A stretch of 64,000 nucleotides of DNA, from positions 4,096,001 through 4,160,000 of the forward strand of contig OZ243961.1 of the NCBI GenBank assembly GCA_965214605.1, given 5' to 3'. The position numbers and the translations under genes are program-made. The DNA is from an uncultured Candidatus Binatia bacterium. GTDB lineage: Bacteria; Desulfobacterota; Binatia; Bin18. This document shows positions 3,574 through 14,688 of this stretch, piece by piece. How positions within the stretch are numbered: the stretch's first letter is position 1; every line of letters begins with the position of its first letter. The notes beneath the pieces are model-generated. The model made no database searches and was not told where the DNA came from. It was given only the letters and a program-made list of their open reading frames with translations.

Positions 3574-5298
3574 ATGCAGGACGTTTTGATGCGGTGGATT
3601 TGTCAAGCCAGTCTGGCGGTCGCGCTGCTGGTGGCGCTCAGTGTCGGTGCGGTGGCCGACCAACACGCCGAATCGGATGAGGGTCTGGCGTCGGTGACCA
3701 ATGAGCGACTGCTCAAAGGAACGCTGAATGGGAGCGACTGGCTGATGTACGGCGGCAATTATGAAAGCTGGCGGTTCAGCCCGCTGACCGATATTGACCG
3801 CCACAATGTCAAAAAGCTCCAGGCCGCCTGGGTTTTTCAGACAGGTATTCCGGCCCAGCTCCAAGCCTCTCCGGTAGTGGCGGACGGGGTGCTGTATCTG
3901 ACCGCGGCCTACAACAGTTTGTTTGCCATCGACGCAGTGAGCGGCGAGATGCTGTGGAGATATGATCATCCGCTCCCAAAGGACATGCGGATCTGCTGCG
4001 GTCCGGGCAACCGGGGTCCCGCCATTGCCGGTGATCTGCTCTACATGGGCACCCTAGATGCCCGGGTGCTGGCGCTCAATCGCAAGACTGGCAAAGTGGT
4101 ATGGAATATCGAGGTGGATAATTATCGCAATGGCTTTAGCGTGACCGCCGCTCCGCTGGTGGTCAAAGATAAGATCATTGTCGGCATCGCCGGTGGCGAG
4201 TATGGCGTTCGGGGCTATCTGGACGCCTATGATGCCAAGACAGGTGAGCTGGTATGGCGTCGTTACACCATTCCCAATATGGGCGAGGCGGGGAATGAGA
4301 CTTGGGAGGGCGATTCCTGGAAGCAGGGTGGTGGGCCGACCTGGGTGACCGGATCCTACGATCCAGAAGCCGATTTACTGTATTGGGCAACCGGTAACCC
4401 GGCACCGGACTGGAACGGAGACAACCGTGAGGGCGATAATCTGTACACCAACTGTGTGCTGGCTCTGGACCCGGATACCGGCCAGCTGAAGTGGTATTTC
4501 CAATTCACACCACACGACATCTGGGATTATGACGGCAATACCGGCATGTTTCTCCTTGATGTCCAACGCGGGACAGAAACCGTCAAGGCCCTAGCGCAGC
4601 CGAACCGGAATGGCTTTTTGTACGTTCTTGACCGCCACAGCGGGAAATTTTTGCACGGCGCACGCTACGTTGAGCAGCTGAACTGGGCCAAGGGGCTTAA
4701 TGAAAACGGCCGGCCACAGGTTGACCCCAAATACGTCCCAATGAAGGGTGGTAACCCTGAGCTGATCTGCCCCGGCAATGTTGGAGGCCAGAATGGCTCC
4801 TATGCTGCGGCCTACAGCCCCACAGCACACGCGATCTTTGTGCCGACGATTGAGAGCTGCGGTAAGATGGAAAAAGCTACCGCGATGTTTATCCAGGGCG
4901 TTCCGTTTTGGGGTGGCGGCCCTGGAGAGACGCAGGGCGATCTGGGCACCGCCTATGGCCATGTCTCGGCTATTGATCCGACGAGCGGCCAGGTCAAGTG
5001 GCGCTATAAAGACAAATATCCGATGGTTGGCGGCGCATTGGCGACGGCTGGCGGTCTAGTGTTTACTGGTAATCAACAGGGCTATGCTCTGGCCTTGGAC
5101 GACACGACCGGTGAGCTGCTGTGGAAGTTCCAAACTGGCTCGACGGTACGTGGTCAGCCAATCACGTATAAAATCGGCGGACGCCAATATGTGGCAATCC
5201 CAAGCGGGGCGGGCGGTCTGGTTGTCAGCATTGTTGGCGAGAATCCCAATATCAGCAAGGGGAGCGCGCTGTTGGTGTTTGCCCTGCCCGAGGGCTAG
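3574..5298 (+). CDS. PQQ-dependent alcohol dehydrogenase (methanol/ethanol family), lanthanide-type motif
   Basis: Signal peptide, vicinal disulfide RICCG, AGGEYGVRG, WATGNP, PHDIWDYDG and W-repeat beta-propeller motifs. Confidence 0.9.
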   Translation: MQDVLMRWICQASLAVALLVALSVGAVADQHAESDEGLASVTNERLLKGTLNGSDWLMYGGNYESWRFSPLTDIDRHNVKKLQAAWVFQTGIPAQLQASPVVADGVLYLTAAYNSLFAIDAVSGEMLWRYDHPLPKDMRICCGPGNRGPAIAGDLLYMGTLDARVLALNRKTGKVVWNIEVDNYRNGFSVTAAPLVVKDKIIVGIAGGEYGVRGYLDAYDAKTGELVWRRYTIPNMGEAGNETWEGDSWKQGGGPTWVTGSYDPEADLLYWATGNPAPDWNGDNREGDNLYTNCVLALDPDTGQLKWYFQFTPHDIWDYDGNTGMFLLDVQRGTETVKALAQPNRNGFLYVLDRHSGKFLHGARYVEQLNWAKGLNENGRPQVDPKYVPMKGGNPELICPGNVGGQNGSYAAAYSPTAHAIFVPTIESCGKMEKATAMFIQGVPFWGGGPGETQGDLGTAYGHVSAIDPTSGQVKWRYKDKYPMVGGALATAGGLVFTGNQQGYALALDDTTGELLWKFQTGSTVRGQPITYKIGGRQYVAIPSGAGGLVVSIVGENPNISKGSALLVFALPEG

Positions 5299-5356: not shown

Positions 5357-6472
5357 TCAGCTCTGGGCGGCGCTCTGCCACGCCCGCCCCATTGCATCTG
5401 CCGCTAAAATCGCGTCTGCAACCATATCAGGGCTGACCTCAAACGGTTCGTTATGGATGGTCTCACCCTCGGCCGTGGCCCGGGCGGCAACCTGGGCGAG
5501 CTGCTCACGCGGCATGTCGGCCCCAAGACCGATCTCGTCCAGCGTGATGGGCAGACCGACCTGGCTGCAGAAGTGCAGAACGGGATCGATCACCGCGCGT
5601 GGCTTGCCTTCCATCACCAGCTGGGTCATCAGGCCGTAGGCCACCTTTTCTCCGTGATAGTACGGGTGGGTCTGAGCGGCTTCGGTCAGGCCGTTGTGTA
5701 CAGCGTGGGCGGCCGCCAGTCCAGACGATTCAAAGCCCAGACCGGACAACAGGGTGTTGGCCTCAACGAGACGTTCCAAGGCTGGATTGACGACATTATT
5801 TTCGACCGCCCGCAGAGCATCCGGTCCGTCTTCGACCAGGATGTTGTAACATAGTTCGGCCAGCTTCTCGGCGCTCCGGGTTGAGGCGCCACCGCGCATA
5901 TTTTGAATATGGCCTGCAACACAGGTCTTGGCTTCAAACCAGGTGGCCAGGGCATCCCCCATACCGGCGACTAGCAGGCGGGGTGGAGCCTGAGCCACCA
6001 CGTGCGTATCAACCAGCACCAGATCGGGATTCTTGCGGTAAAAACGGTATTCCTGAAAGACGCCCTGCTCGGTGTAGATAACCGACAGCGCACTACACGG
6101 TGCGTCGCTTGAGGCAATGGTCGGACAGTTGACCACCGGTAGGTTGAGGTCATCGGCCGCCGCCCGTGCGGCATCCAGCACTTTTCCACCGCCCGCGCCA
6201 ATCACCACCTGACTTTTGTTGTCCCGGGCGCTTTGCTTAATCCGTTCAATCTCGGGATATGAGCACTCGCCACCAAACTGATGTACAGCGTGACGAAGCC
6301 CGGCTTGGCTTAAATGCTGCTGCCAGACTTCGGACAGCAGCCGAATCGCGCTCCTTCCAGCAACAATCAGGGCCGGGCCCGCGAGCCCAATTCGTTGCAT
6401 TTCCGTGCCCAGTTGAGCGGTGGCGTTTTTTCCTTGGACGTAATGGCTTGGCGCCGAAAAGACCGAAAGCAT
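5357..6472 (-). CDS. gldA: Glycerol dehydrogenase (iron/zinc-containing ADH family)
   Basis: GGGKVLD, PTIASSDAPCS, GMGDALATWFEA, GLAAAHAVHNGLT and HGEKVAYG motifs; AAGGAGG RBS before ATG 6472. Confidence 0.9.
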   Translation of the reverse strand: MLSVFSAPSHYVQGKNATAQLGTEMQRIGLAGPALIVAGRSAIRLLSEVWQQHLSQAGLRHAVHQFGGECSYPEIERIKQSARDNKSQVVIGAGGGKVLDAARAAADDLNLPVVNCPTIASSDAPCSALSVIYTEQGVFQEYRFYRKNPDLVLVDTHVVAQAPPRLLVAGMGDALATWFEAKTCVAGHIQNMRGGASTRSAEKLAELCYNILVEDGPDALRAVENNVVNPALERLVEANTLLSGLGFESSGLAAAHAVHNGLTEAAQTHPYYHGEKVAYGLMTQLVMEGKPRAVIDPVLHFCSQVGLPITLDEIGLGADMPREQLAQVAARATAEGETIHNEPFEVSPDMVADAILAADAMGRAWQSAAQS

Positions 6473-6577
6473 AGCCGCCTCCTTGAGGTACGGGTCCTTA
6501 GTATACAGCCAGTCCCGGACAGTATAGACAAAGACTGGTCGGTGCGGCAAGCGAGGAAAAAAGGAAGACGGACTCGA

Positions 6578-7438
6578 ATGCATATGAGGCAACACCTCTT
6601 ACAACTACAACGCGGCTCGGGGCGGTGGCTGTGGTGTATTGTCTGGCTCGTTGCCACCACGTGCCAGCCCGACCCTCCTGAACTCGGCAGCTATGCCTAT
6701 GGACGGCATGTCGTTGACTGTACGCCGGGAACCCGTCCGGGGCTGGCCGGCGTCCAGGATGACGAACGGTCGGCCAAGGGTATCAGCTATAATGTCCGCA
6801 CCCCGGCCAATTACGACCCACGCGTTGCCCATCCCCTGCTGATGGTCTACGCCCCGGCCGGGGTCAATCGGTTTGGCAGCGAGTCCTTGACCGATCTGAC
6901 CAAAGCGGCCACCCAGGCCGGTTTCATTATCGCCTATGCGAATCGTCGCCGTCTGTCGATCAAGGTCATTGAAGAGCTGGGGACGATTCCTGATCTGATT
7001 GCCGAAAAGTGGTGTGTTGATCCAAGGCGAATTTTTCTGACAGGCCACTCCGACGGAGGAACGGTTGCTGTTGCGCTGGCCGTCTTAGAACAAACGCAGC
7101 ATATCCCGACCGCAATCGCGCCAAGCGCGGCCGGATTCACAGCCCAGGATCTTGCCGCCTTTGCCTGCCCGGCTCCGCTGTCAGTGATGGTGATGCACGG
7201 CGCTGAGGATCGACATTTCCCCGGCTATGGCCAACAGATTGCAGACTGGTGGGCGGTCTGTAACCGCTGTGGGAGACGAGCGAGCCCACGCCGGGCTGAT
7301 GGGTGTCGCAGCTATCCTAACTGCGCCGGTGGTGTGAGGACGGTGTACTGTGAGGGAACAGGCTCCCACCTGGAGTGGCCCGGCTTCAATCCACAGCTCC
7401 TAGCCTTCTTCACTGGACTCAGCCAATATCGCCCATAA
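6578..7438 (+). CDS. Exported alpha/beta-hydrolase, PHB-depolymerase/LpqC-like esterase
   Basis: N-terminal hydrophobic segment ending ATTC (lipobox-like), nucleophile elbow GHSDG, HGAED, and SHLEWPG His motif. Start is ATG 6578 or 6584. Confidence 0.75.
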   Translation: MHMRQHLLQLQRGSGRWLWCIVWLVATTCQPDPPELGSYAYGRHVVDCTPGTRPGLAGVQDDERSAKGISYNVRTPANYDPRVAHPLLMVYAPAGVNRFGSESLTDLTKAATQAGFIIAYANRRRLSIKVIEELGTIPDLIAEKWCVDPRRIFLTGHSDGGTVAVALAVLEQTQHIPTAIAPSAAGFTAQDLAAFACPAPLSVMVMHGAEDRHFPGYGQQIADWWAVCNRCGRRASPRRADGCRSYPNCAGGVRTVYCEGTGSHLEWPGFNPQLLAFFTGLSQYRP

Positions 7439-7583: not shown

Positions 7584-8168
7584 ATGAACTGTACGAGAAA
7601 GACTGGATGGGTCAGGATGGCGTTGGCAACGCTTGGCGCGGCCCTACTGCTGGTTGGAACGCCAGCTGAGGCGCATCGAGACCGTGGACCAAACGACGCG
7701 TGTCGGCGAGAGATTGGAGCTTCGCTTCTGCACATAACGCTGTATCAGACCCAGTTCGATCCGGTTGCCGAGTACTGCGAAGAAGTCCCACGGGCGGGCA
7801 AGGCACTCATGGTTGTCGATGTGACCCCGGGCCAATTACGGGCAGTCCCCCTTGGGCTCGAAATTATCGCCACCAACGAATCGGGTCAGTCGCAGGCCGT
7901 GGTGTCGGTAGCGCCTCGGATTTATGAGCGCGGCGTGATGAATACAGAGGTGGTCTTTGTCAAGGACAAGGAGTATGTTGCCCAGGTGATGGTCGAGCTG
8001 GAAGAGGGCAAAGCGCCACAACTCCTGGCCTTTCCCATTCAGGTCGCGTCGTGGTATAAGGCAATGATGGTGCCGGGGCTGATTGTGGGTGGGGTGCTCA
8101 TCTTTGTGCTCATTTCAGTCTTCCGCTATACAATTGTCTCCCGGCAGCACAGCGAGGCGTTGGCCTAA
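7584..8168 (+). CDS. pmoD: PmoD/AmoD-like copper protein (copy 1)
   Basis: Signal peptide AEA|H, motif C-x7-L-x-H-x14-C (PmoD motif is Cx7MxHx14C), C-terminal TM helix, directly upstream of xmoC. Confidence 0.75.
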   Translation: MNCTRKTGWVRMALATLGAALLLVGTPAEAHRDRGPNDACRREIGASLLHITLYQTQFDPVAEYCEEVPRAGKALMVVDVTPGQLRAVPLGLEIIATNESGQSQAVVSVAPRIYERGVMNTEVVFVKDKEYVAQVMVELEEGKAPQLLAFPIQVASWYKAMMVPGLIVGGVLIFVLISVFRYTIVSRQHSEALA

Positions 8169-9142: not shown

Positions 9143-9946
9143 ATGGCAGACGCACCAGCTACAGTGACAGACCTGACGGCCGAGGCCGAACGCCAAAAAC
9201 GGCTCGAGCTTAAGGCCCTGTTGGAAAAAAAGTATAAATGGATCGATTGGAAGTGGGACCTGATCTTCTGGGTCACGGCCATCTTTGTCGTTGCTGGAGC
9301 GGCAGATATTACCAAACAGCTGTTTGCCGGTGACTGGGACTTCTGGACCGACTGGAAAGATCCCCAGTGGTGGCCGGTGGTCACCGCTTTTGCCACGATC
9401 ATCATTCCGTCTGCCCTACAGTATATCCAGTGGGTGGCGTGGCGCTTCCCCACCGGGGCAACCTACACTGCGTGTTGCATGTTTTTGGCAGCCTGGGTGG
9501 GGCGTTACTTCCAGTGGAATGTGGCCGAAACCTATCCTATGAACTTTGTGTGGCCGATCTCTATCGTCGGGGCAGGTATCCTGATGGACTGGACTCTGAT
9601 GAAAACCAAGAGTTTCATCCTCACCTCCCTCATTGGTGCACATGTCTGGGCCATTGCGGTGTGGGCCTATAATTATATTCCCCTGTCACCCTTCCTCCAA
9701 CCCGCCCACTTCATGGATCATGTCGTGACGGTCTCCGATGTCCAGGGTATTGCCTATATTCGATCGCAGACGCCGGAATATTTGCGTCTAATTGAGCGTG
9801 GTGCGCTGCGCAGCTTCCTGGGCGAAACCCAGTACGTGTCTCTGGTATTTGGCGGCACGGTCGCCTTTGCTGGGTATTGGATCGGCCAGTTCATCGGTCG
9901 CTACCTAGCGGTCTGGCCGATTAGGCGCTACTTAAAAACGCTGTGA
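9143..9946 (+). CDS. pmoA: Copper membrane monooxygenase subunit A (divergent PmoA/AmoA)
   Basis: GDWDFWTDWKDPQWWP, PTGAT, YPMNFVWP and YIRSQTPEYLRLIERGALRSF motifs. Confidence 0.93.
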   Translation: MADAPATVTDLTAEAERQKRLELKALLEKKYKWIDWKWDLIFWVTAIFVVAGAADITKQLFAGDWDFWTDWKDPQWWPVVTAFATIIIPSALQYIQWVAWRFPTGATYTACCMFLAAWVGRYFQWNVAETYPMNFVWPISIVGAGILMDWTLMKTKSFILTSLIGAHVWAIAVWAYNYIPLSPFLQPAHFMDHVVTVSDVQGIAYIRSQTPEYLRLIERGALRSFLGETQYVSLVFGGTVAFAGYWIGQFIGRYLAVWPIRRYLKTL

Positions 9947-9953
9947 GGTCGCT

Positions 9954-10235
9954 ATGCTAAGCACAACGCAATGGAGCAAAGTCGCAGGTGCTAGCCTGGC
10001 CGCCCTGCTCGCAACGCCGTCACTCGGACACGCCCATGGCATAGGACTGGACGAAATGGCCCCTCCTGTAGTAACGGCAATCCTGCTTGGTCTGGCGTGT
10101 TACTGGCTGATGGTGCTGTGGCCCGCCGGGAGACACACTAAGCTCCCGTCGTTTGAGACGCCGGTCAGCGAAAAGATTCGGATCAAACAGAAGCCGCGCC
10201 TGCGGGTGGTGGAGAGGAGACTGGTCGATGACTAA
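9954..10235 (+). CDS. Small unknown membrane protein between xmoA and xmoB
   Basis: 93 aa; GAGG RBS; signal peptide GHA|HG, one TM helix and a basic tail. Starts 7 nt after xmoA and overlaps the xmoB start by 8 nt. Confidence 0.7.
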   Translation: MLSTTQWSKVAGASLAALLATPSLGHAHGIGLDEMAPPVVTAILLGLACYWLMVLWPAGRHTKLPSFETPVSEKIRIKQKPRLRVVERRLVDD

Positions 10236-11487
10236 GTGGGCGACCGGGCAGGTCCTGCTTGGCCTGATGCTTTTCGGCTGGACTGCCGTGATCGGTGTTC
10301 CTCAATGTTTTGCCCATGGCGAGGCCGCAGATGAGCCTTTCCTGAAAAACCTAACAACCGCGTTTTTCGACGTGTCGGTGTCTCCGACCGAAATTCAGGT
10401 CGGCGAGCCGGTCACTATCACCGGTAAGGTCCAGATCCTGGAGACCTGGCCGCACACGCTCTACCCCCCGGAAATCGCCTCTATCATGCCGGTGGTCCCC
10501 GGACCGGTGTTTCTGCTCAAGGAGCGAACAGTCAACGGGGAATCCTCAATCGGTTCGTTTTTTGTTGAAAAGGGTGGAATTTACGAGTTCCGCATGGTGC
10601 TCATCGGCAAAGAACCCGGCGAATGGCATGTACATCCTGGGATTGCCATCCATGGAACCGGAACGCTCATCGGCCCGGCTGAATGGGTCAACGTAGCGCC
10701 TAGCACAACCCCACTCGAATTTCCGGTGACCCTGCTGAGCGGTGAGACCATTGAACTGAGTAGTTACGGCGGAAGCTTCGTTGTCTGGTGGTCATTTCTC
10801 GGCTTTGGACTGGGTCTTGTCTGGATGTTGTATTGGACCCTGACCAAGAGAACCGTCACAAACCTAGCCGTGACCCTCCAGATTCCCCCTAACGATGACG
10901 CGCCTGATCTGGGTCTCATTACCCCACGTGACCATATGTGGATGAACGTGATCGCCGGGGCTGCGCTCATCATGCTGGTAGCCGGCTGGACCTATGCAAC
11001 GACGAGCTATCCGGTCAGATGGCCGCAACAGACCGACTGGTTCACGCCAGAATTGATCTCACCGGGACCGAAAATGGCCGAGGTGCGGGCTACCGGGGCG
11101 ACGTTTGATGAGGGGACCGAGACGCTAGAGATGGACGTCCGGGTCACGAACGTTGACGACAGCCCGATCACAGTGAAGAAATACACGATGGCAATGGCCA
11201 GCTTTGTCAACGGTGGCGAACAAGAACAGGCCGCCGCGGGACCGCGCGATTTTGTCGGGACCCTCAACGTCGCCCCCAACGTTCCGATCGAACCGGGCCA
11301 GACTCAAGAGCTGAGTCTCAGCATTTCGAGCGCCTTGTTCGGCACCGAACGCCTGATTCCGCTCAGCGCCCCGCAGCAATATATCGCCGGTGTCTTCCAG
11401 TTTGAGAACTCAGACGGCGAGCAGGAGTTGGTCACGGTCCGCTCAGGCCTCATCCCAACCCGCTTCACCCCCCAGTATCTGCCCTAG
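10228..11487 (+). CDS. pmoB: Copper membrane monooxygenase subunit B (divergent PmoB/AmoB)
   Basis: Signal peptide CFA|HGE (N-terminal His), EPFLK, PGPVF..KER, GEWHVHP (CuB His-x-His), two central TM helices and a second cupredoxin-like domain; GAGGAG RBS before ATG 10228. Confidence 0.92.
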   Translation: MTKWATGQVLLGLMLFGWTAVIGVPQCFAHGEAADEPFLKNLTTAFFDVSVSPTEIQVGEPVTITGKVQILETWPHTLYPPEIASIMPVVPGPVFLLKERTVNGESSIGSFFVEKGGIYEFRMVLIGKEPGEWHVHPGIAIHGTGTLIGPAEWVNVAPSTTPLEFPVTLLSGETIELSSYGGSFVVWWSFLGFGLGLVWMLYWTLTKRTVTNLAVTLQIPPNDDAPDLGLITPRDHMWMNVIAGAALIMLVAGWTYATTSYPVRWPQQTDWFTPELISPGPKMAEVRATGATFDEGTETLEMDVRVTNVDDSPITVKKYTMAMASFVNGGEQEQAAAGPRDFVGTLNVAPNVPIEPGQTQELSLSISSALFGTERLIPLSAPQQYIAGVFQFENSDGEQELVTVRSGLIPTRFTPQYLP

Positions 11488-11516: not shown

Positions 11517-12107
11517 GTGTGGATCGGCATCTTCCTGTCACTTATCTGGCCGACTGTGCTCCTCCTCGCACCGCTCCCACTGTGGGCGCACGGCGGGGTT
11601 GGGATTGAGCAAGACACGTGTGTCGAGCGAGCTGGTCCATCGTTGATTCATTTTGTTGCTTATCAACCCGAGCTGAGTCCAAGCCAAGAGTTCTGTACCC
11701 GCTTGCCCCAGGTCGGGAGCACGATCCTTGTTTTTGATTTGATTGACGAGGTCGTCCGCAAACGTCCGGCAAGTCTGCGGGTAGTAGAAACCGGTACTAC
11801 GGCTGAGCCCCGTACCCTGCTCCATATTCCGGCTCAAACATATCTGAATGGGGTGCTCAACGCCGAGCTCACATTTGACGAGCCGGGCCACTACGCGGCA
11901 GTGGTGACGCTGGAGAATCCGTATCAGCAGATCACATTTCCGTTTCGCGTTGGACGGTGGTCGGTTCAGCTCCTGGTGGTGCTCAGCGGCCTCGTTTGTG
12001 GCGCGCTTGGCGGCTATTTCTTCTTCCGGGGCAAAAAGAAGCCGCCGCAGCTTAGGCGGTTGAAAAGCTACCCCCCCTTTTCCTACTCGTCATCTCCCCA
12101 TACATAG
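11517..12107 (+). CDS. pmoD: PmoD/AmoD-like copper protein (copy 2)
   Basis: Signal peptide LWA|HGGVG, C-x7-L-x-H-x14-C motif, C-terminal TM helix, in the canonical position after pmoB. Confidence 0.8.
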   Translation: MWIGIFLSLIWPTVLLLAPLPLWAHGGVGIEQDTCVERAGPSLIHFVAYQPELSPSQEFCTRLPQVGSTILVFDLIDEVVRKRPASLRVVETGTTAEPRTLLHIPAQTYLNGVLNAELTFDEPGHYAAVVTLENPYQQITFPFRVGRWSVQLLVVLSGLVCGALGGYFFFRGKKKPPQLRRLKSYPPFSYSSSPHT

Positions 12108-13824: not shown

Positions 13825-14688
13825 GTGGTGATCTTTTTCCTGGCTGTGTTTGCTGTCTGCGTATTTCCTGCGCTGGGTTTGAGCCAAGAAACCGCGCCAC
13901 GCGCGCCTCAGGTCCACACCGATCACCGAATGGATGCTGAGCCGCATGCCGATCACCGAATGGATGCTGAGCCGCATGCCGATCACCGAATGGATGCTGA
14001 GCCGCATGCCGATCACCGAATGGATGCTGAGCCGCATGCCGATCACCGAATGGATGCTGAGCCGCATGCCGATCACCAAGTCCATGAGCATCACGCTATG
14101 CGGCTGGACGCCTCAGGTATGGTTATGAATGAAAACACCGACGAACTGCCGCGAGGCTGTCCACGCATCGCTGGCGAACAACATATCACCGTCCGCGCCG
14201 GTAAGGAATTTGCGCGGGATTTTTCAGGCACGATGTTCACCTATGACCAGCGAGAGTGGGCGGTCGAACCGTGTACACAGCTCACCGTCAGCCTGATCAA
14301 TACCGATGAGGTTCGCCACCAATGGATGTTGCATGGTCTGCCCCGCTATCTGTATGACCAGGGTATGTTCACCCTGGAGGTCGCGGGAAAAGGTCAGAAA
14401 ACCGCCAGCTTTATCGTGCCGCCGGGAAGCAAGACGTATCTGGTCCATTGTGACGTGCCACACCATATGGAAAAAGGGATGAAAGCCCAGTTAAAGGTCG
14501 GTGGTGGGGATGGCGATTTGCCGAGTATCCCGGGGATTACCGGCCCCCGCCTGGAAGATCCCTATCTGTTTGAGTGGGGGTGGACAGGAATAGGGTTGAC
14601 CCTTGTTGGCGGGCTGCTTGGTCTAGTCCTAGCCAGCAGAGGACCGGGTCTGCTGCGACAGGTGCGGGTGAAACAAATACGCAAGTGA
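13825..14688 (+). CDS. Cupredoxin (type-1 copper) protein with His/Met-rich N-terminal repeat and C-terminal TM anchor
   Basis: Signal peptide, (DHRMDAEPHA)x5, HQWMLHG and HCDVPHHMEKGM (C-x4-H-x4-M). Confidence 0.8.
   Translation: MVIFFLAVFAVCVFPALGLSQETAPRAPQVHTDHRMDAEPHADHRMDAEPHADHRMDAEPHADHRMDAEPHADHRMDAEPHADHQVHEHHAMRLDASGMVMNENTDELPRGCPRIAGEQHITVRAGKEFARDFSGTMFTYDQREWAVEPCTQLTVSLINTDEVRHQWMLHGLPRYLYDQGMFTLEVAGKGQKTASFIVPPGSKTYLVHCDVPHHMEKGMKAQLKVGGGDGDLPSIPGITGPRLEDPYLFEWGWTGIGLTLVGGLLGLVLASRGPGLLRQVRVKQIRK
13921..14077 (+). repeat. Perfect 30-bp coding tandem repeat, 5 copies plus a partial copy
   Basis: GATCACCGAATGGATGCTGAGCCGCATGCC repeated exactly five times (13921-14070), then GATCACC. 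Confidence 0.97.

Follow-up and report, generated by a model that had tools for sequence, protein, structure and literature searches.

A 93-residue protein, here called X, is encoded between xmoA and xmoB in the CuMMO operon of an uncultured Binatia bacterium, and we interpret it as a genuine fourth protein product of this hydrocarbon-monooxygenase-type operon of the Binatia. X most likely serves the enzyme as a supernumerary subunit with a single helix (probability about 0.5). CuMMOs, which include pMMO, AMO, and hydrocarbon monooxygenases, control the oxidation of methane, ammonia, and short alkanes, and purifying them or expressing them as active enzymes is difficult. Structures solved recently in native membranes showed them to include small helices that had been overlooked and whose genes are scattered; the gene for X, by contrast, has been locked in place between those of the A and B subunits throughout an entire order of soil bacteria. 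Single supernumerary helices have by now been seen in structures of pMMO and AMO, and by analogy with them X is probably a subunit of this kind encoded within the operon.

The CuMMO operon and the position of X

The window is the whole stretch of DNA analyzed, 64,000 nucleotides from a Binatia MAG (GenBank assembly GCA_965214605.1, contig OZ243961.1, positions 4,096,001 to 4,160,000). Within it, the operon is laid out as follows.

7584 to 8168, + strand: U, a 194-aa PmoD-like protein with a signal peptide, A|HRDRG, a beta-sandwich, and a C-terminal TM segment
8217 to 9056, + strand: xmoC, 279 aa (PF04896 AmoC, E = 1e-42)
9143 to 9946, + strand: xmoA, 267 aa (PF02461 AMO, E = 1.2e-53)
9945 to 9948, + strand: GAGG, ribosome-binding site of X, 5 nt 5' of the ATG and overlapping the xmoA stop codon
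9954 to 10235, + strand: X ORF, ATG start, 93 aa, as read from the sequence
10228 to 11487, + strand: xmoB, 419 aa (PF04744 Monooxygenase_B, E = 1.4e-77), with H30, H134, and H136 invariant (CuB-type ligands)
11517 to 12107, + strand: D, a 196-aa PmoD-like protein with a signal peptide, WA|HGGVG, a beta-sandwich, and a C-terminal TM segment
12109 to 13821, + strand: multicopper oxidase, 570 aa (Pfam Cu-oxidase_3/_2/Cu-oxidase), after D and in the same direction
13825 to 14688, + strand: 287-aa protein, HADHRMDAEP repeated five times, hydrophobic segment at the C terminus

The window CuMMO is divergent, as the XmoC, XmoA, and XmoB scores fall far under the NCBIfam AmoA/B/C and pmo equivalog cut-offs. 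Its nearest named relative is the actinobacterial enzyme, with xmoA 41 to 45% identical to HmoA. XmoC has conserved ligand-type positions at D137/H141/H154 and N211/H215/H229, which, by pMMO numbering, we take to be of the CuC and CuD type, respectively.

The genes that flank xmoCAB, until now of unknown function, can be reannotated as PmoD-like. The AF2 model of D (pLDDT 78) has as its top Foldseek match the soluble domain of PmoD (6cpd; E = 7e-12, 34% identity, TM score 0.76 on the target), and U is a paralogue of D at 27% identity. U opens the conserved block, lying upstream of xmoC in 20/20 fetched operons, while D is missing from 7 of the 20, all of which retain X. The multicopper oxidase and the 287-aa repeat protein, the latter with a weak cupredoxin-type match (Pfam Cu-oxidase_2, E = 3.7e-4), are each present in 18/20.

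The X start codon lies 7 nt beyond the xmoA stop codon (TGA, 9944 to 9946), and the X stop codon (TAA, 10233 to 10235) lies within xmoB, giving an 8-nt overlap of the two ORFs. The sequence GGAGAGGAG at 10211 to 10219 precedes the xmoB ATG at 10228. Although the ORF listing begins xmoB at an upstream TTG (10153), the alignment of orthologues backs the ATG, from which XmoB has a normal signal peptide ending in CFA|HGE. X is translationally linked to its neighbors in this genome by the 7-nt gap and 8-nt overlap, and the ORF, ribosome-binding site, and spacing described in the sequence-only reading were all recovered when the sequence was read again.

The arrangement itself has a precedent: the order CAxB in Binatota was printed by Murphy et al. 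2021, with x given as "hypothetical" (PMC8262859). A literature search found this order stated only in that paper and its preprint, and in the literature found, operon tables in supplements aside, the x gene is neither named nor analyzed. The sequence-only reading contained neither this precedent nor the PmoD-like nature of the 194- and 196-aa flanking genes.

Conservation, distribution, and selection

In this G+C-rich window, dozens of chance ORFs are comparable to X, so a 93-codon open frame is uninformative when taken alone. What lifts X above chance is its conservation, fixed position, and purifying selection. Matches to X lie between xmoA and xmoB at all 31 distinct genome loci examined (L022 to L055, of which three are duplicates and one is the window itself). 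Among related genomes, X was found in 35/61, comprising 33/36 in one family (f1), 1/1 in a second (f2), and 0/23 in 12 other families of the class, and its distribution tracks that of the window-type xmoA. Sampling across the phylum gave X in 2 of 301 genomes, both from family f1. A metagenome scan with a narrow alignment (A9) gave about 110 relatives of X. Eighty metagenome loci were retrieved via the X peptide pattern alone; xmoA lay upstream in 71/71 of those with a flank longer than 300 nt, and xmoB lay downstream in 61/62 of those with a flank longer than 700 nt. X is a coding gene that has been conserved at a fixed place between xmoA and xmoB.

A second CuMMO operon of Binatia, 36 to 40% identical, had no X match at any of five loci; its xmoA and xmoB are adjacent or at most ~70 nt apart at four of these and ~260 nt apart at the fifth (L086). 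The lack of X in this operon indicates that X is clade specific and not a general spacer. A hidden X in the A-B gaps of the second-type or actinobacterial operons was rejected, as no HMM hit was obtained at any locus and the actinobacterial gaps measure 4 to 26 nt (four loci).

Pooled over genome pairs of the window genus, which are related and non-independent, pN/pS was 0.20 for residues 28 to 58 and 0.21 for residues 73 to 93 of X, with the signal peptide and linker less constrained at 0.58 and 0.67, respectively. Purifying selection on X is concentrated in the stub plus TM helix and in the basic C-terminal motif. The sequence-only reading had staked its proposal on conservation and purifying selection in relatives, and both are found. 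For the whole gene, pN/pS was about 0.25, versus 0.05 to 0.10 for XmoCAB, and over the metagenome loci the median identity to the window was 43% for X, versus 79% for A and 64% for B. This faster evolution of X relative to XmoCAB counts against its being a subunit.

We also considered that the ORF might be a translated spacer that couples xmoB to xmoA translation, its peptide being functionless. The short gap and overlap in the window genus would suit such a role, and X overlaps xmoB in 10 of the 34 loci listed, L039 being the only one of these 10 outside the window genus. However, the spacing between X and xmoB ranges from 2 to more than 400 nt in other genera, where the protein is still kept. 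The amino acids are also conserved despite saturating synonymous change (pS of about 0.4, similar to that of xmoCAB, with pN/pS near 0.2 in two segments), and the invariant residues persist among sequences of just 30 to 60% identity, which leaves a functionless peptide extremely improbable.

The "hypothetical protein" x of Binatota CAxB operons can be reannotated as belonging to a defined family, for which 1.84 billion representatives yielded at least 95 clusters at 50% identity, all of small proteins. Searches for named relatives returned little. Pfam and NCBIfam gave no family, the sole hit being PsaK at 17 bits (cut-off, 67.95) on the signal peptide, and the best ESM Atlas score (0.79) was under a meaningful level. 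Scoring of 8000 candidates gave no fused or longer forms of X (257 to 2000 aa), though this is weak evidence of their absence. The stretch was found in Logan contigs from five sequencing runs of unrecorded kind in two studies, none listed as RNA.

Predicted architecture of X

The segments of the protein are as follows.

9954 to 10034, + strand: residues 1 to 27, predicted Sec-type signal peptide (K9 in the n-region, weak h-region, c-region P-S-L-G-H-A)
10035 to 10067, + strand: residues 28 to 38, short predicted periplasmic stub HGIGLDEMAPP, with H28, E34, and P38 invariant
10068 to 10124, + strand: residues 39 to 57, TM helix VVTAILLGLACYWLMVLWP, with Y50, W51, W56, and P57 invariant and T41, L45, and L55 near-invariant
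10125 to 10235, + strand: residues 58 to 93 plus stop, predicted cytoplasmic tail; linker 59 to 72 variable, last 8 nt overlapping xmoB
10176 to 10220, + strand: residues 75 to 89, conserved basic motif IRIKQKPRLRVVERR from the alignment of homologues

The N-terminal segment is weakly hydrophobic (Kyte-Doolittle maximum, 1.6 over 15 residues) and ends in L-G-H-A|H-G. It has the elements of a Sec signal, with K9 in the n-region, an h-region from V10 to A20, G25 at -3, and A27 at -1. Across 35 aligned homologues, position -1 is always Ala, position -3 is Val, Ala, or Gly, and position +1 is always His, and cleavage at A27|H28 is predicted by the -3/-1 rule only. The length and sequence of the signal peptide differ among genera; Lys or Arg is found in the n-region of 112 of the 116 family members having a signal region. 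As an RR pair is present in just 52 of the 116 n-regions, the signal is not consistently of the Tat type; a Tat signal was rejected for X, whose window copy has no RR. A lipoprotein reading was likewise rejected, since the +1 residue is not Cys.

Eight residues are invariant in the 35-sequence alignment (A2), namely, A27, H28, E34, P38, Y50, W51, W56, and P57, and the His and second Pro of the stub are also invariant among 63 further, more divergent sequences. Residues ~38 to 57 are strongly hydrophobic (hydropathy maximum, 2.19), and the tail (59 to 93) has 10 Lys plus Arg and 5 Asp plus Glu, for a net charge of +5. The AF2 monomer has two helices, 3-27 and 32-59, interrupted at HGIG, and a tail modeled as disordered. 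After predicted cleavage, hydropathy and AF2 thus both describe a small 66-residue protein with one TM helix. The signal peptide GHA|HG, single TM helix, and basic tail proposed earlier are borne out by this analysis, with cleavage placed by rule; the sequence would also accommodate X as an uncleaved two-helix hairpin.

Comparison with known small CuMMO subunits

Small additional proteins have been described for several CuMMOs. These include a 23-residue protein beside PmoC in pMMO of Methylocystis sp. Rockwell and the product of an unannotated 46-residue ORF beside AmoC in AMO of N. europaea (PMC11725843), as well as the single-TM AmoD plus AmoE in AMO of N. halophila (PMC12804982). Such supernumerary helices are proposed there to stabilize the complex or to mediate arrays or contacts with partners (PMC11725843, PMC12804982). 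For archaeal AMO, a third report describes AmoX/Y/Z, with amoX beside amoA, and proposes AmoX as an extra AMO subunit on the basis of co-regulation, proteomics, and modeling (PMC13058606). These reports back the earlier statement that archaeal AMO has small extra subunits and that extra helices occur in pMMO/AMO structures (PMC13058606, PMC11725843, PMC12804982).

The bacterial supernumerary helices are, as is predicted for X, small single-pass membrane proteins tied to a CuMMO. In contrast to X, which is intra-operonic, their genes lie away from the amo/pmo operon, and two of them were unannotated. Three further features set X apart from them: a signal peptide predicted to be cleaved, a His/Glu stub that is conserved, and a basic tail of 35 residues. 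The AMO helix is oriented N-in/C-out, whereas X is predicted to be N-out/C-in. A profile of 18 X sequences searched against all PDB chains of at least 20 residues gave only a chance hit (cytochrome oxidase subunit 2, E = 1.3) and thus no homology to a structurally identified supernumerary subunit. Because the known helices are encoded off-operon and X lacks similarity to PDB chains, the likeness is one of analogy by kind and not of homology. Archaeal AmoX, too, is a small membrane protein with a gene next to amoA and clade-wide conservation, and a conserved genetic linkage like that of amoX is found for X at the genome and metagenome loci counted above. However, AmoX belongs to another domain of life and another CuMMO clade, and the archaeal subunits compensate for helices missing in archaeal AmoABC, whereas the Binatia XmoA, XmoB, and XmoC are full length. 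Our comparison with AmoX is one of descriptions set side by side, apart from any AmoX chains in the PDB set.

If X is a subunit, its N-terminal 27 residues would act as a Sec signal and be cut after A27, leaving a 66-residue N-out/C-in protein whose periplasmic stub of 10 to 11 residues would start with His28 and carry the invariant Glu34. The TM helix would present a small face (T41/L45/G46/C49) and, at its cytoplasmic end, the aromatic cluster Y50-W51-W56-P57. It may pack on the membrane periphery of the XmoC/XmoA protomer, in the way that native structures of pMMO and AMO show supernumerary helices packed on PmoC/AmoC. The basic tail would rest on the cytoplasmic face, against either anionic head groups of lipids or the acidic C terminus of XmoC. 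A copper ion could be held or passed on by the His/Glu stub, which would lie at the periplasmic surface of the membrane; this is the least supported step of the model. Complex prediction with XmoC (20-262), XmoA, XmoB (30-419), and X (28-93) from alignments scored 0.00 in two runs without controls, which gives no verdict either way. The N-terminal His, the Glu, the aromatic cluster, and the basic motif provide clear targets for mutation.

Relationship to PmoD

X resembles PmoD/AmoD (6cpd) in being encoded with CuMMO genes and in having a signal peptide, a His after the predicted cleavage site, and a C-terminal membrane anchor, and the N-terminal profiles are weakly similar. In contrast, X has no cupredoxin-like beta-sandwich, as residues 28 to 38 (10 to 11 residues) are all that separates the TM helix from the predicted cleavage site, and the operon already has U and D besides X. 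Could X be a cut-down PmoD, derived from a PmoD-like gene of the operon, that kept the signal peptide, the A|HGG-x-G-x3-D/E N terminus, and the membrane anchor, lost the beta-sandwich, and has U and D, not XmoCAB itself, as the proteins that it works with or modulates? When the profiles of X (A2) and of the U/D family (A7) were compared by hhalign, P was 4.6e-4, with the signal-peptide end, AH-G-G, and an acidic residue aligned, and none of 432 segment-preserving column shuffles attained the score of 29.7 (null mean, 15.8; maximum, 21.7). Both U and D have a PmoD-like fold, and in most genera they are found on either side of this operon. However, the hhalign probability is low (33%), the match covers 34 N-terminal columns that in part represent a signal-peptidase site common to unrelated exported proteins, and the TM motifs are unlike, as CYW..LWP in X has no counterpart in U or D. 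The absence of D from operons that keep X also speaks against this reading, which we consider quite improbable.

Small ORFs beside actinobacterial hmoB

All four plasmid-borne actinobacterial hmoCAB loci have an unnamed small ORF directly after hmoB (e.g., Mycch_5908 on plasmid pMYCCH.01 of Mycolicibacterium chubuense NBB4). These ORFs encode 71 to 98 aa with one TM helix followed by basic residues, the same topology by charge as X, and their exoplasmic motif A-H-G-G-x4-D-E-[IM]-A is in register with A-H-G-(G)-x3-4-[DE]-E-x-[GA] of X, as is the tested form A-H-G-G-Q-x-T-x-D-E. They differ in lying after B instead of between A and B, in lacking a signal peptide and having 6 to 7 residues before the His, which is consequently not N-terminal, and in lacking the X motifs Y-W..W-P and basic IRIK.KPRL. 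HMMER searches with X against these ORFs gave nothing significant (E of about 1), and hhalign gave a probability of 19% (P = 0.0012), with 6 of 524 segment-preserving shuffles reaching the score. Together, the motif and profile similarities are at most suggestive of homology.

A broader idea is that X and the actinobacterial ORFs belong to a single ancient family, which arose from PmoD by loss of the beta-sandwich. Its members would be a fourth subunit, in touch with copper, throughout the hydrocarbon-oxidizing CuMMO branch (Binatia plus Actinobacteria), and their exoplasmic H-G-G-x4-(D/E)-E stub would reach a copper site of XmoB/XmoC. We regard this as improbable, but it would fit the unassigned density that, in native pMMO of M. 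capsulatus, connects the membrane with CuB. If it were true, the activity loss of purified or heterologous CuMMOs could partly reflect lost small subunits, and the idea could be tested at once in culturable mycobacteria. A real link between X and these ORFs would likewise make a subunit role testable in the culturable and tractable Mycolicibacterium and Rhodococcus.

Possible role in copper insertion

Instead of a stoichiometric subunit, X might be a transient assembly or copper-insertion factor, in which a membrane-tethered His28 (amine plus imidazole) and Glu34 would capture periplasmic copper and deliver it to CuB/CuC/CuD during insertion of XmoA, XmoB, and XmoC. The invariance of H28 and E34 within so short a stub agrees with this, and predicted cleavage would place His first in X, as in XmoB of the same operon. 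Genes for copper handling abound in the operon (two PmoD-like genes, the multicopper oxidase, and the His/Met/Asp-repeat cupredoxin-like protein), and the faster evolution of X than of the core subunits fits an accessory role. However, a histidine brace normally requires a second His from the same folded domain, and mature window X has no second His outside the membrane: H61 is on the cytoplasmic side, and H26 goes with the signal peptide, being Tyr in 17/35 homologues. Besides H and E, the strongest conservation is in the TM helix and cytoplasmic tail, pointing to stable packing and away from a chaperone site of the soluble type, and the internal His of the possible actinobacterial relatives also argues against the insertion role, which we view as rather unlikely.

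The sequence-only reading had likened the N terminus of X to the copper-binding N terminus of PmoB. Every aligned homologue has a His at +1 of the predicted cleavage site, mature window X has a single periplasmic His, and the comparison is weakened by the non-N-terminal His of the actinobacterial look-alikes, if these are true relatives. The two roles offered in that reading, a structural subunit or a membrane-tethered copper shuttle, are both candidate functions here.

Stand-alone paralogues

Paralogues of X without the basic tail occur in one genus (g8), distant from any CuMMO genes. Their assignment as the X of the second CuMMO was rejected under the threshold used; all seven genomes with the paralogue have a second CuMMO, but eight other second-CuMMO genomes lack it. 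The existence of these stand-alone paralogues counts against the subunit reading, as it implies that the X fold can work outside the operon.

A divergent CuMMO operon with an additional gene

The genome carrying the operon is near complete (4.37 Mb in 9 contigs). The CuMMO block is a co-directional run of genes on the + strand that extends from U, one of two flanking PmoD-like proteins, to a repeat-bearing cupredoxin-like protein.

Features of the CuMMO region (window positions)
3574-5298, +, PQQ-dependent alcohol dehydrogenase, just upstream of the CuMMO block
5357-6595, -, iron-containing alcohol dehydrogenase, just upstream of the CuMMO block
7584-8168, +, U, PmoD-like protein of 194 aa
8217-9056, +, xmoC (Pfam AmoC, E = 1e-42)
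9143-9946, +, xmoA (Pfam AMO, E = 1.2e-53)
9954-10235, +, X, the ORF under study
10228-11487, +, xmoB (ATG start backed by orthologues; Pfam Monooxygenase_B, E = 1.4e-77)
11517-12107, +, D, PmoD-like protein of 196 aa
12109-13821, +, multicopper oxidase of 570 aa
13825-14688, +, repeat-bearing cupredoxin-like protein of 287 aa

XmoC, XmoA, and XmoB score well under the NCBIfam AmoABC/PmoABC equivalog cutoffs, and the window enzyme is therefore a divergent CuMMO. Among named proteins, XmoA is closest to the A subunits of actinobacterial hydrocarbon monooxygenases (41 to 45% identity), and the XmoC C terminus is likewise similar to its counterparts in those enzymes. Both upstream alcohol dehydrogenases are consistent with an alkane-to-alcohol-to-aldehyde route. 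The 287-aa protein, encoded directly after the multicopper oxidase, contains HADHRMDAEP five times in tandem, a repeat with abundant His, Met, and Asp. It also gives a weak match of cupredoxin type and has a hydrophobic segment at the C terminus, and a copper-binding role for it seems likely.

The U-C-A-X-B order was intact in all 20 fetched operons, which span several genera, with D retained in 13 of them and the multicopper oxidase and repeat protein in 18. This gene order is already in print: Murphy et al. gave CAxB for Binatota, with nothing further on x (PMC8262859), and in the literature searched, we found the statement only in that paper and its preprint. A 2026 preprint has a "putative pmoA Binatales" clade among the hydrocarbon monooxygenases, and the portion of its text available to us does not mention the X gene. 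New here, and of relevance to CuMMO specialists, are the definition of the X family, its constraint pattern and strict linkage, the PmoD-like nature of U and D, and a possible actinobacterial counterpart of X.

X is a conserved gene in a fixed position

An open frame of 93 codons is by itself no evidence for a gene, as the window holds many chance ORFs of that size. A word-indexed search returned 17 relatives at 51 to 90% identity, none with a name other than "hypothetical protein," and an X profile, searched exhaustively against 1.84 billion cluster representatives, matched 95 clusters at E ≤ 1e-3 (77 at E ≤ 1e-10), every one of which is a small protein. X has no family in Pfam or NCBIfam, and no related sequence turned up among the PDB chains. 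Its profile matched in 35 of 61 related genomes, including 33/36 in one family of the class (f1) and 1/1 in another (f2), and in 0/23 genomes from twelve other families; in a phylum-wide sample, X was present in 2/301 genomes, both from f1. This distribution agrees with that of window-type xmoA, aside from three mismatches: in genomes G038 and G029, xmoA is off the contig end or a fragment, and in G026 (84% complete) X is present and xmoA was not found.

X sits between xmoA and xmoB matches in all 31 distinct loci inspected. Among 80 metagenome loci picked by the X peptide pattern alone, those with enough flank had xmoA upstream in 71/71 cases and xmoB downstream in 61/62. The sole exception (L153) has a gene for an ABC-transporter substrate-binding protein in place of xmoB after xmoA-X; on another metagenome contig (L114), the X tail is lost and a transposase-like ORF comes next.

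Median dN/dS in the window's genus, from 28 nonindependent pairs, was 0.25 for X versus 0.08, 0.05, and 0.10 for the C, A, and B genes, at similar dS. Pooled pN/pS was 0.58 in the signal peptide, 0.20 at residues 28 to 58, 0.67 in the linker (59 to 72), and 0.21 at residues 73 to 93, and a second genus had the same pattern (signal peptide, 0.51; mature part, 0.24). Eight residues (A27, H28, E34, P38, Y50, W51, W56, and P57) are invariant in 35 X sequences that are 33 to 78% identical to the window copy, and H28, P38, W56, and P57 are also invariant across 63 further, more distant sequences. The sequence-only reading of X as a candidate extra subunit had been made to depend on conservation and purifying selection in relatives, and both are borne out. 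X is a real gene with a fixed position and a defined constraint pattern.

Anatomy and predicted topology

The sequence elements originally proposed for X are all present. Its own ribosome-binding site (GAGG at 9945-9948) and start (ATG at 9954) lie at the xmoA stop (TGA at 9944-9946), and its own stop (TAA at 10233-10235) overlaps the xmoB start (ATG at 10228) by 8 nt, with GGAGAGGAG at 10211-10219 preceding that ATG. X would be produced in coordination with XmoA and XmoB; that it is a mere coupling spacer is hardly credible. The weakly hydrophobic N-terminal segment ends in L-G-H-A/H-G (slash, predicted cleavage site), as the GHA/HG signal-region end had been described, and is followed by the one transmembrane (TM) helix, strongly hydrophobic, at residues ~38 to 57 and by the basic tail (10 basic versus 5 acidic residues). 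The AlphaFold2 (AF2) monomer model (mean pLDDT, 68.7) has a helix at 3 to 27, a break at H-G-I-G, a helix at 32 to 59, and a disordered tail.

Ala just before the invariant His and Val, Ala, or Gly at -3, each in 35/35 homologues, are compatible with signal peptidase I. The n-region carries Lys or Arg in 112 of 116 family members; a Tat signal was rejected, as the RR pair is inconsistent (52/116 n-regions). We infer a cut after A27, which would put His28 first, ahead of an acidic, Gly/Pro-rich stub of 10 to 11 residues. XmoB of the same operon has a predicted mature start of H-G-E after CFA. Alternatively, X may be an uncleaved hairpin. Because the stub is acidic (net charge, -2) and the tail basic (+5), the positive-inside rule predicts an N-out/C-in orientation.

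Stand-alone copies and the second CuMMO

A second, stand-alone X copy occurs, at the threshold used, in 7 of 10 genomes of one Binatia genus. Six fetched copies (L076 to L081; e.g., L076:4061-4261 and L077:4015-4266) encode products of 66 to 120 aa that begin A/H-R-G-F-G-P-A-E-L-G; they share the A/H..E..G..P stub pattern and the C-Y-W..W-P helix of X and are without the conserved basic IRIK.KPRL motif. At the two loci scanned (L076 and L077), the copy is flanked by M18 aminopeptidase and fadB-like genes, distant from CuMMO genes. Many relatives also have a second CuMMO operon, absent from the window's genome, whose A subunit is 36 to 40% identical to the window's and which is possibly the TUSC-type clade known from the literature. 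This operon has a plain C-A-B order. None of the five loci checked (L082 to L086, from G031, G033, G002, G005, and G054) had an X match; xmoA and xmoB are adjacent or ~70 nt apart in four of them, and the gap in L086 is ~260 nt.

Flanking PmoD-like proteins

U and D are paralogues of each other without a match in Pfam or NCBIfam. Both carry a signal peptide, with a His directly past the point of predicted cleavage, and both have two invariant Cys, a beta-sandwich, and a TM segment at the C terminus. In a Foldseek comparison, the AF2 model of D (pLDDT, 78) hit 6cpd, the soluble domain of PmoD, at E = 7e-12 and 34% identity. U and D are the PmoD-like proteins of the operon. X itself is not a PmoD, because a beta-sandwich would not fit. 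The end of its signal peptide plus H-G-G-x-G-x3-D/E resembles the U/D N termini (hhalign P = 4.6e-4, probability 33%; score reached by 0/432 shuffles), which would favor a PmoD-derived partner of U and D, but the match is partly a common signal-peptidase site, and we consider such a derivation improbable.

Proposed role of X

That CuMMOs can include small additional membrane subunits is established by several reports. Tucci et al. described "supernumerary" helices adjoining PmoC/AmoC in native membranes, namely, one from a protein of 23 residues in Methylocystis sp. Rockwell and, in N. europaea, one encoded by a 46-residue ORF that had not been annotated; in M. capsulatus, they saw an unidentified density that extends from the membrane to the CuB site (PMC11725843). 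A later AMO structure includes "AmoD," which has a single TM helix, and the soluble protein "AmoE" (PMC12804982), and a 2026 review summarizes the extra subunits, plus archaeal AmoX/Y/Z (PMC13058606). Within the accessible bacterial CuMMO literature, we found no description of an operon-encoded, signal-peptide-bearing extra subunit.

We suggest, with a probability of about 0.5, that X is a supernumerary single-helix subunit of the window's CuMMO; the earlier proposal of a structural subunit or membrane-tethered copper shuttle seems reasonable. Such a subunit, inserted N-out/C-in, would pack on XmoC/XmoA by way of its aromatic cluster and the conserved face of its helix, at a presumed docking site. 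Its basic motif would be positioned at the cytoplasmic surface, with the acidic XmoC C-terminal tail as a conceivable partner, and its His/Glu stub at the periplasmic membrane surface, where His28 may have a role in copper binding. A transient factor for copper insertion or assembly is a less likely identity for X.

A possible actinobacterial counterpart

In all four plasmid-borne actinobacterial hmoCAB clusters found, hmoA and hmoB are adjacent (4 to 26 nt apart), and a small ORF annotated as "hypothetical" lies 73 to 94 nt past hmoB (L087:6101-6316, L088:6078-6359, L089:5577-5873, and L090:5576-5833). The products (71 to 98 aa) begin with M-x5-L-A-H-G-G-Q-x-T-x-D-E-[IM]-A, which is followed by a TM helix and a basic stretch, with L-A-H-G-G-Q-x-T-x-D-E invariant in all four. 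The motif is in register with X (A-H-G-(G)-x3-4-[DE]-E-x-[GA]-P-P, TM helix, basic residues); however, the actinobacterial ORF follows hmoB and is without a signal peptide, whereas X lies between xmoA and xmoB and has a predicted one. The hhalign probability was 19% (P = 0.0012), and the score of 21.2 (shuffled, 12.7 ± 2.75) was reached by 6/524 shuffles with columns permuted within the stub, TM, and tail segments; HMMER found no match between X and these ORFs. Homology is thus no more than possible. If it is real, the actinobacterial His would not be N-terminal, as there is no signal peptide; this would speak against a strict histidine brace at the N terminus and in favor of a purely targeting role for the N-terminal helix of X.

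Possibly decayed or fused copies

One X homologue (L054, G019:C26) has two in-frame stops beside an xmoA split into two overlapping frames, and this operon appears to be decayed or else mis-sequenced or misassembled. Two database proteins join X to a neighbor: in P0040 (235 aa, ending at a contig end), the reading frame continues past X into the signal peptide of XmoB, and in P0096 it runs from XmoA into X. These are either true fusions or gene-calling artifacts; if X and XmoB were fused in frame, the resulting topology would be coherent.
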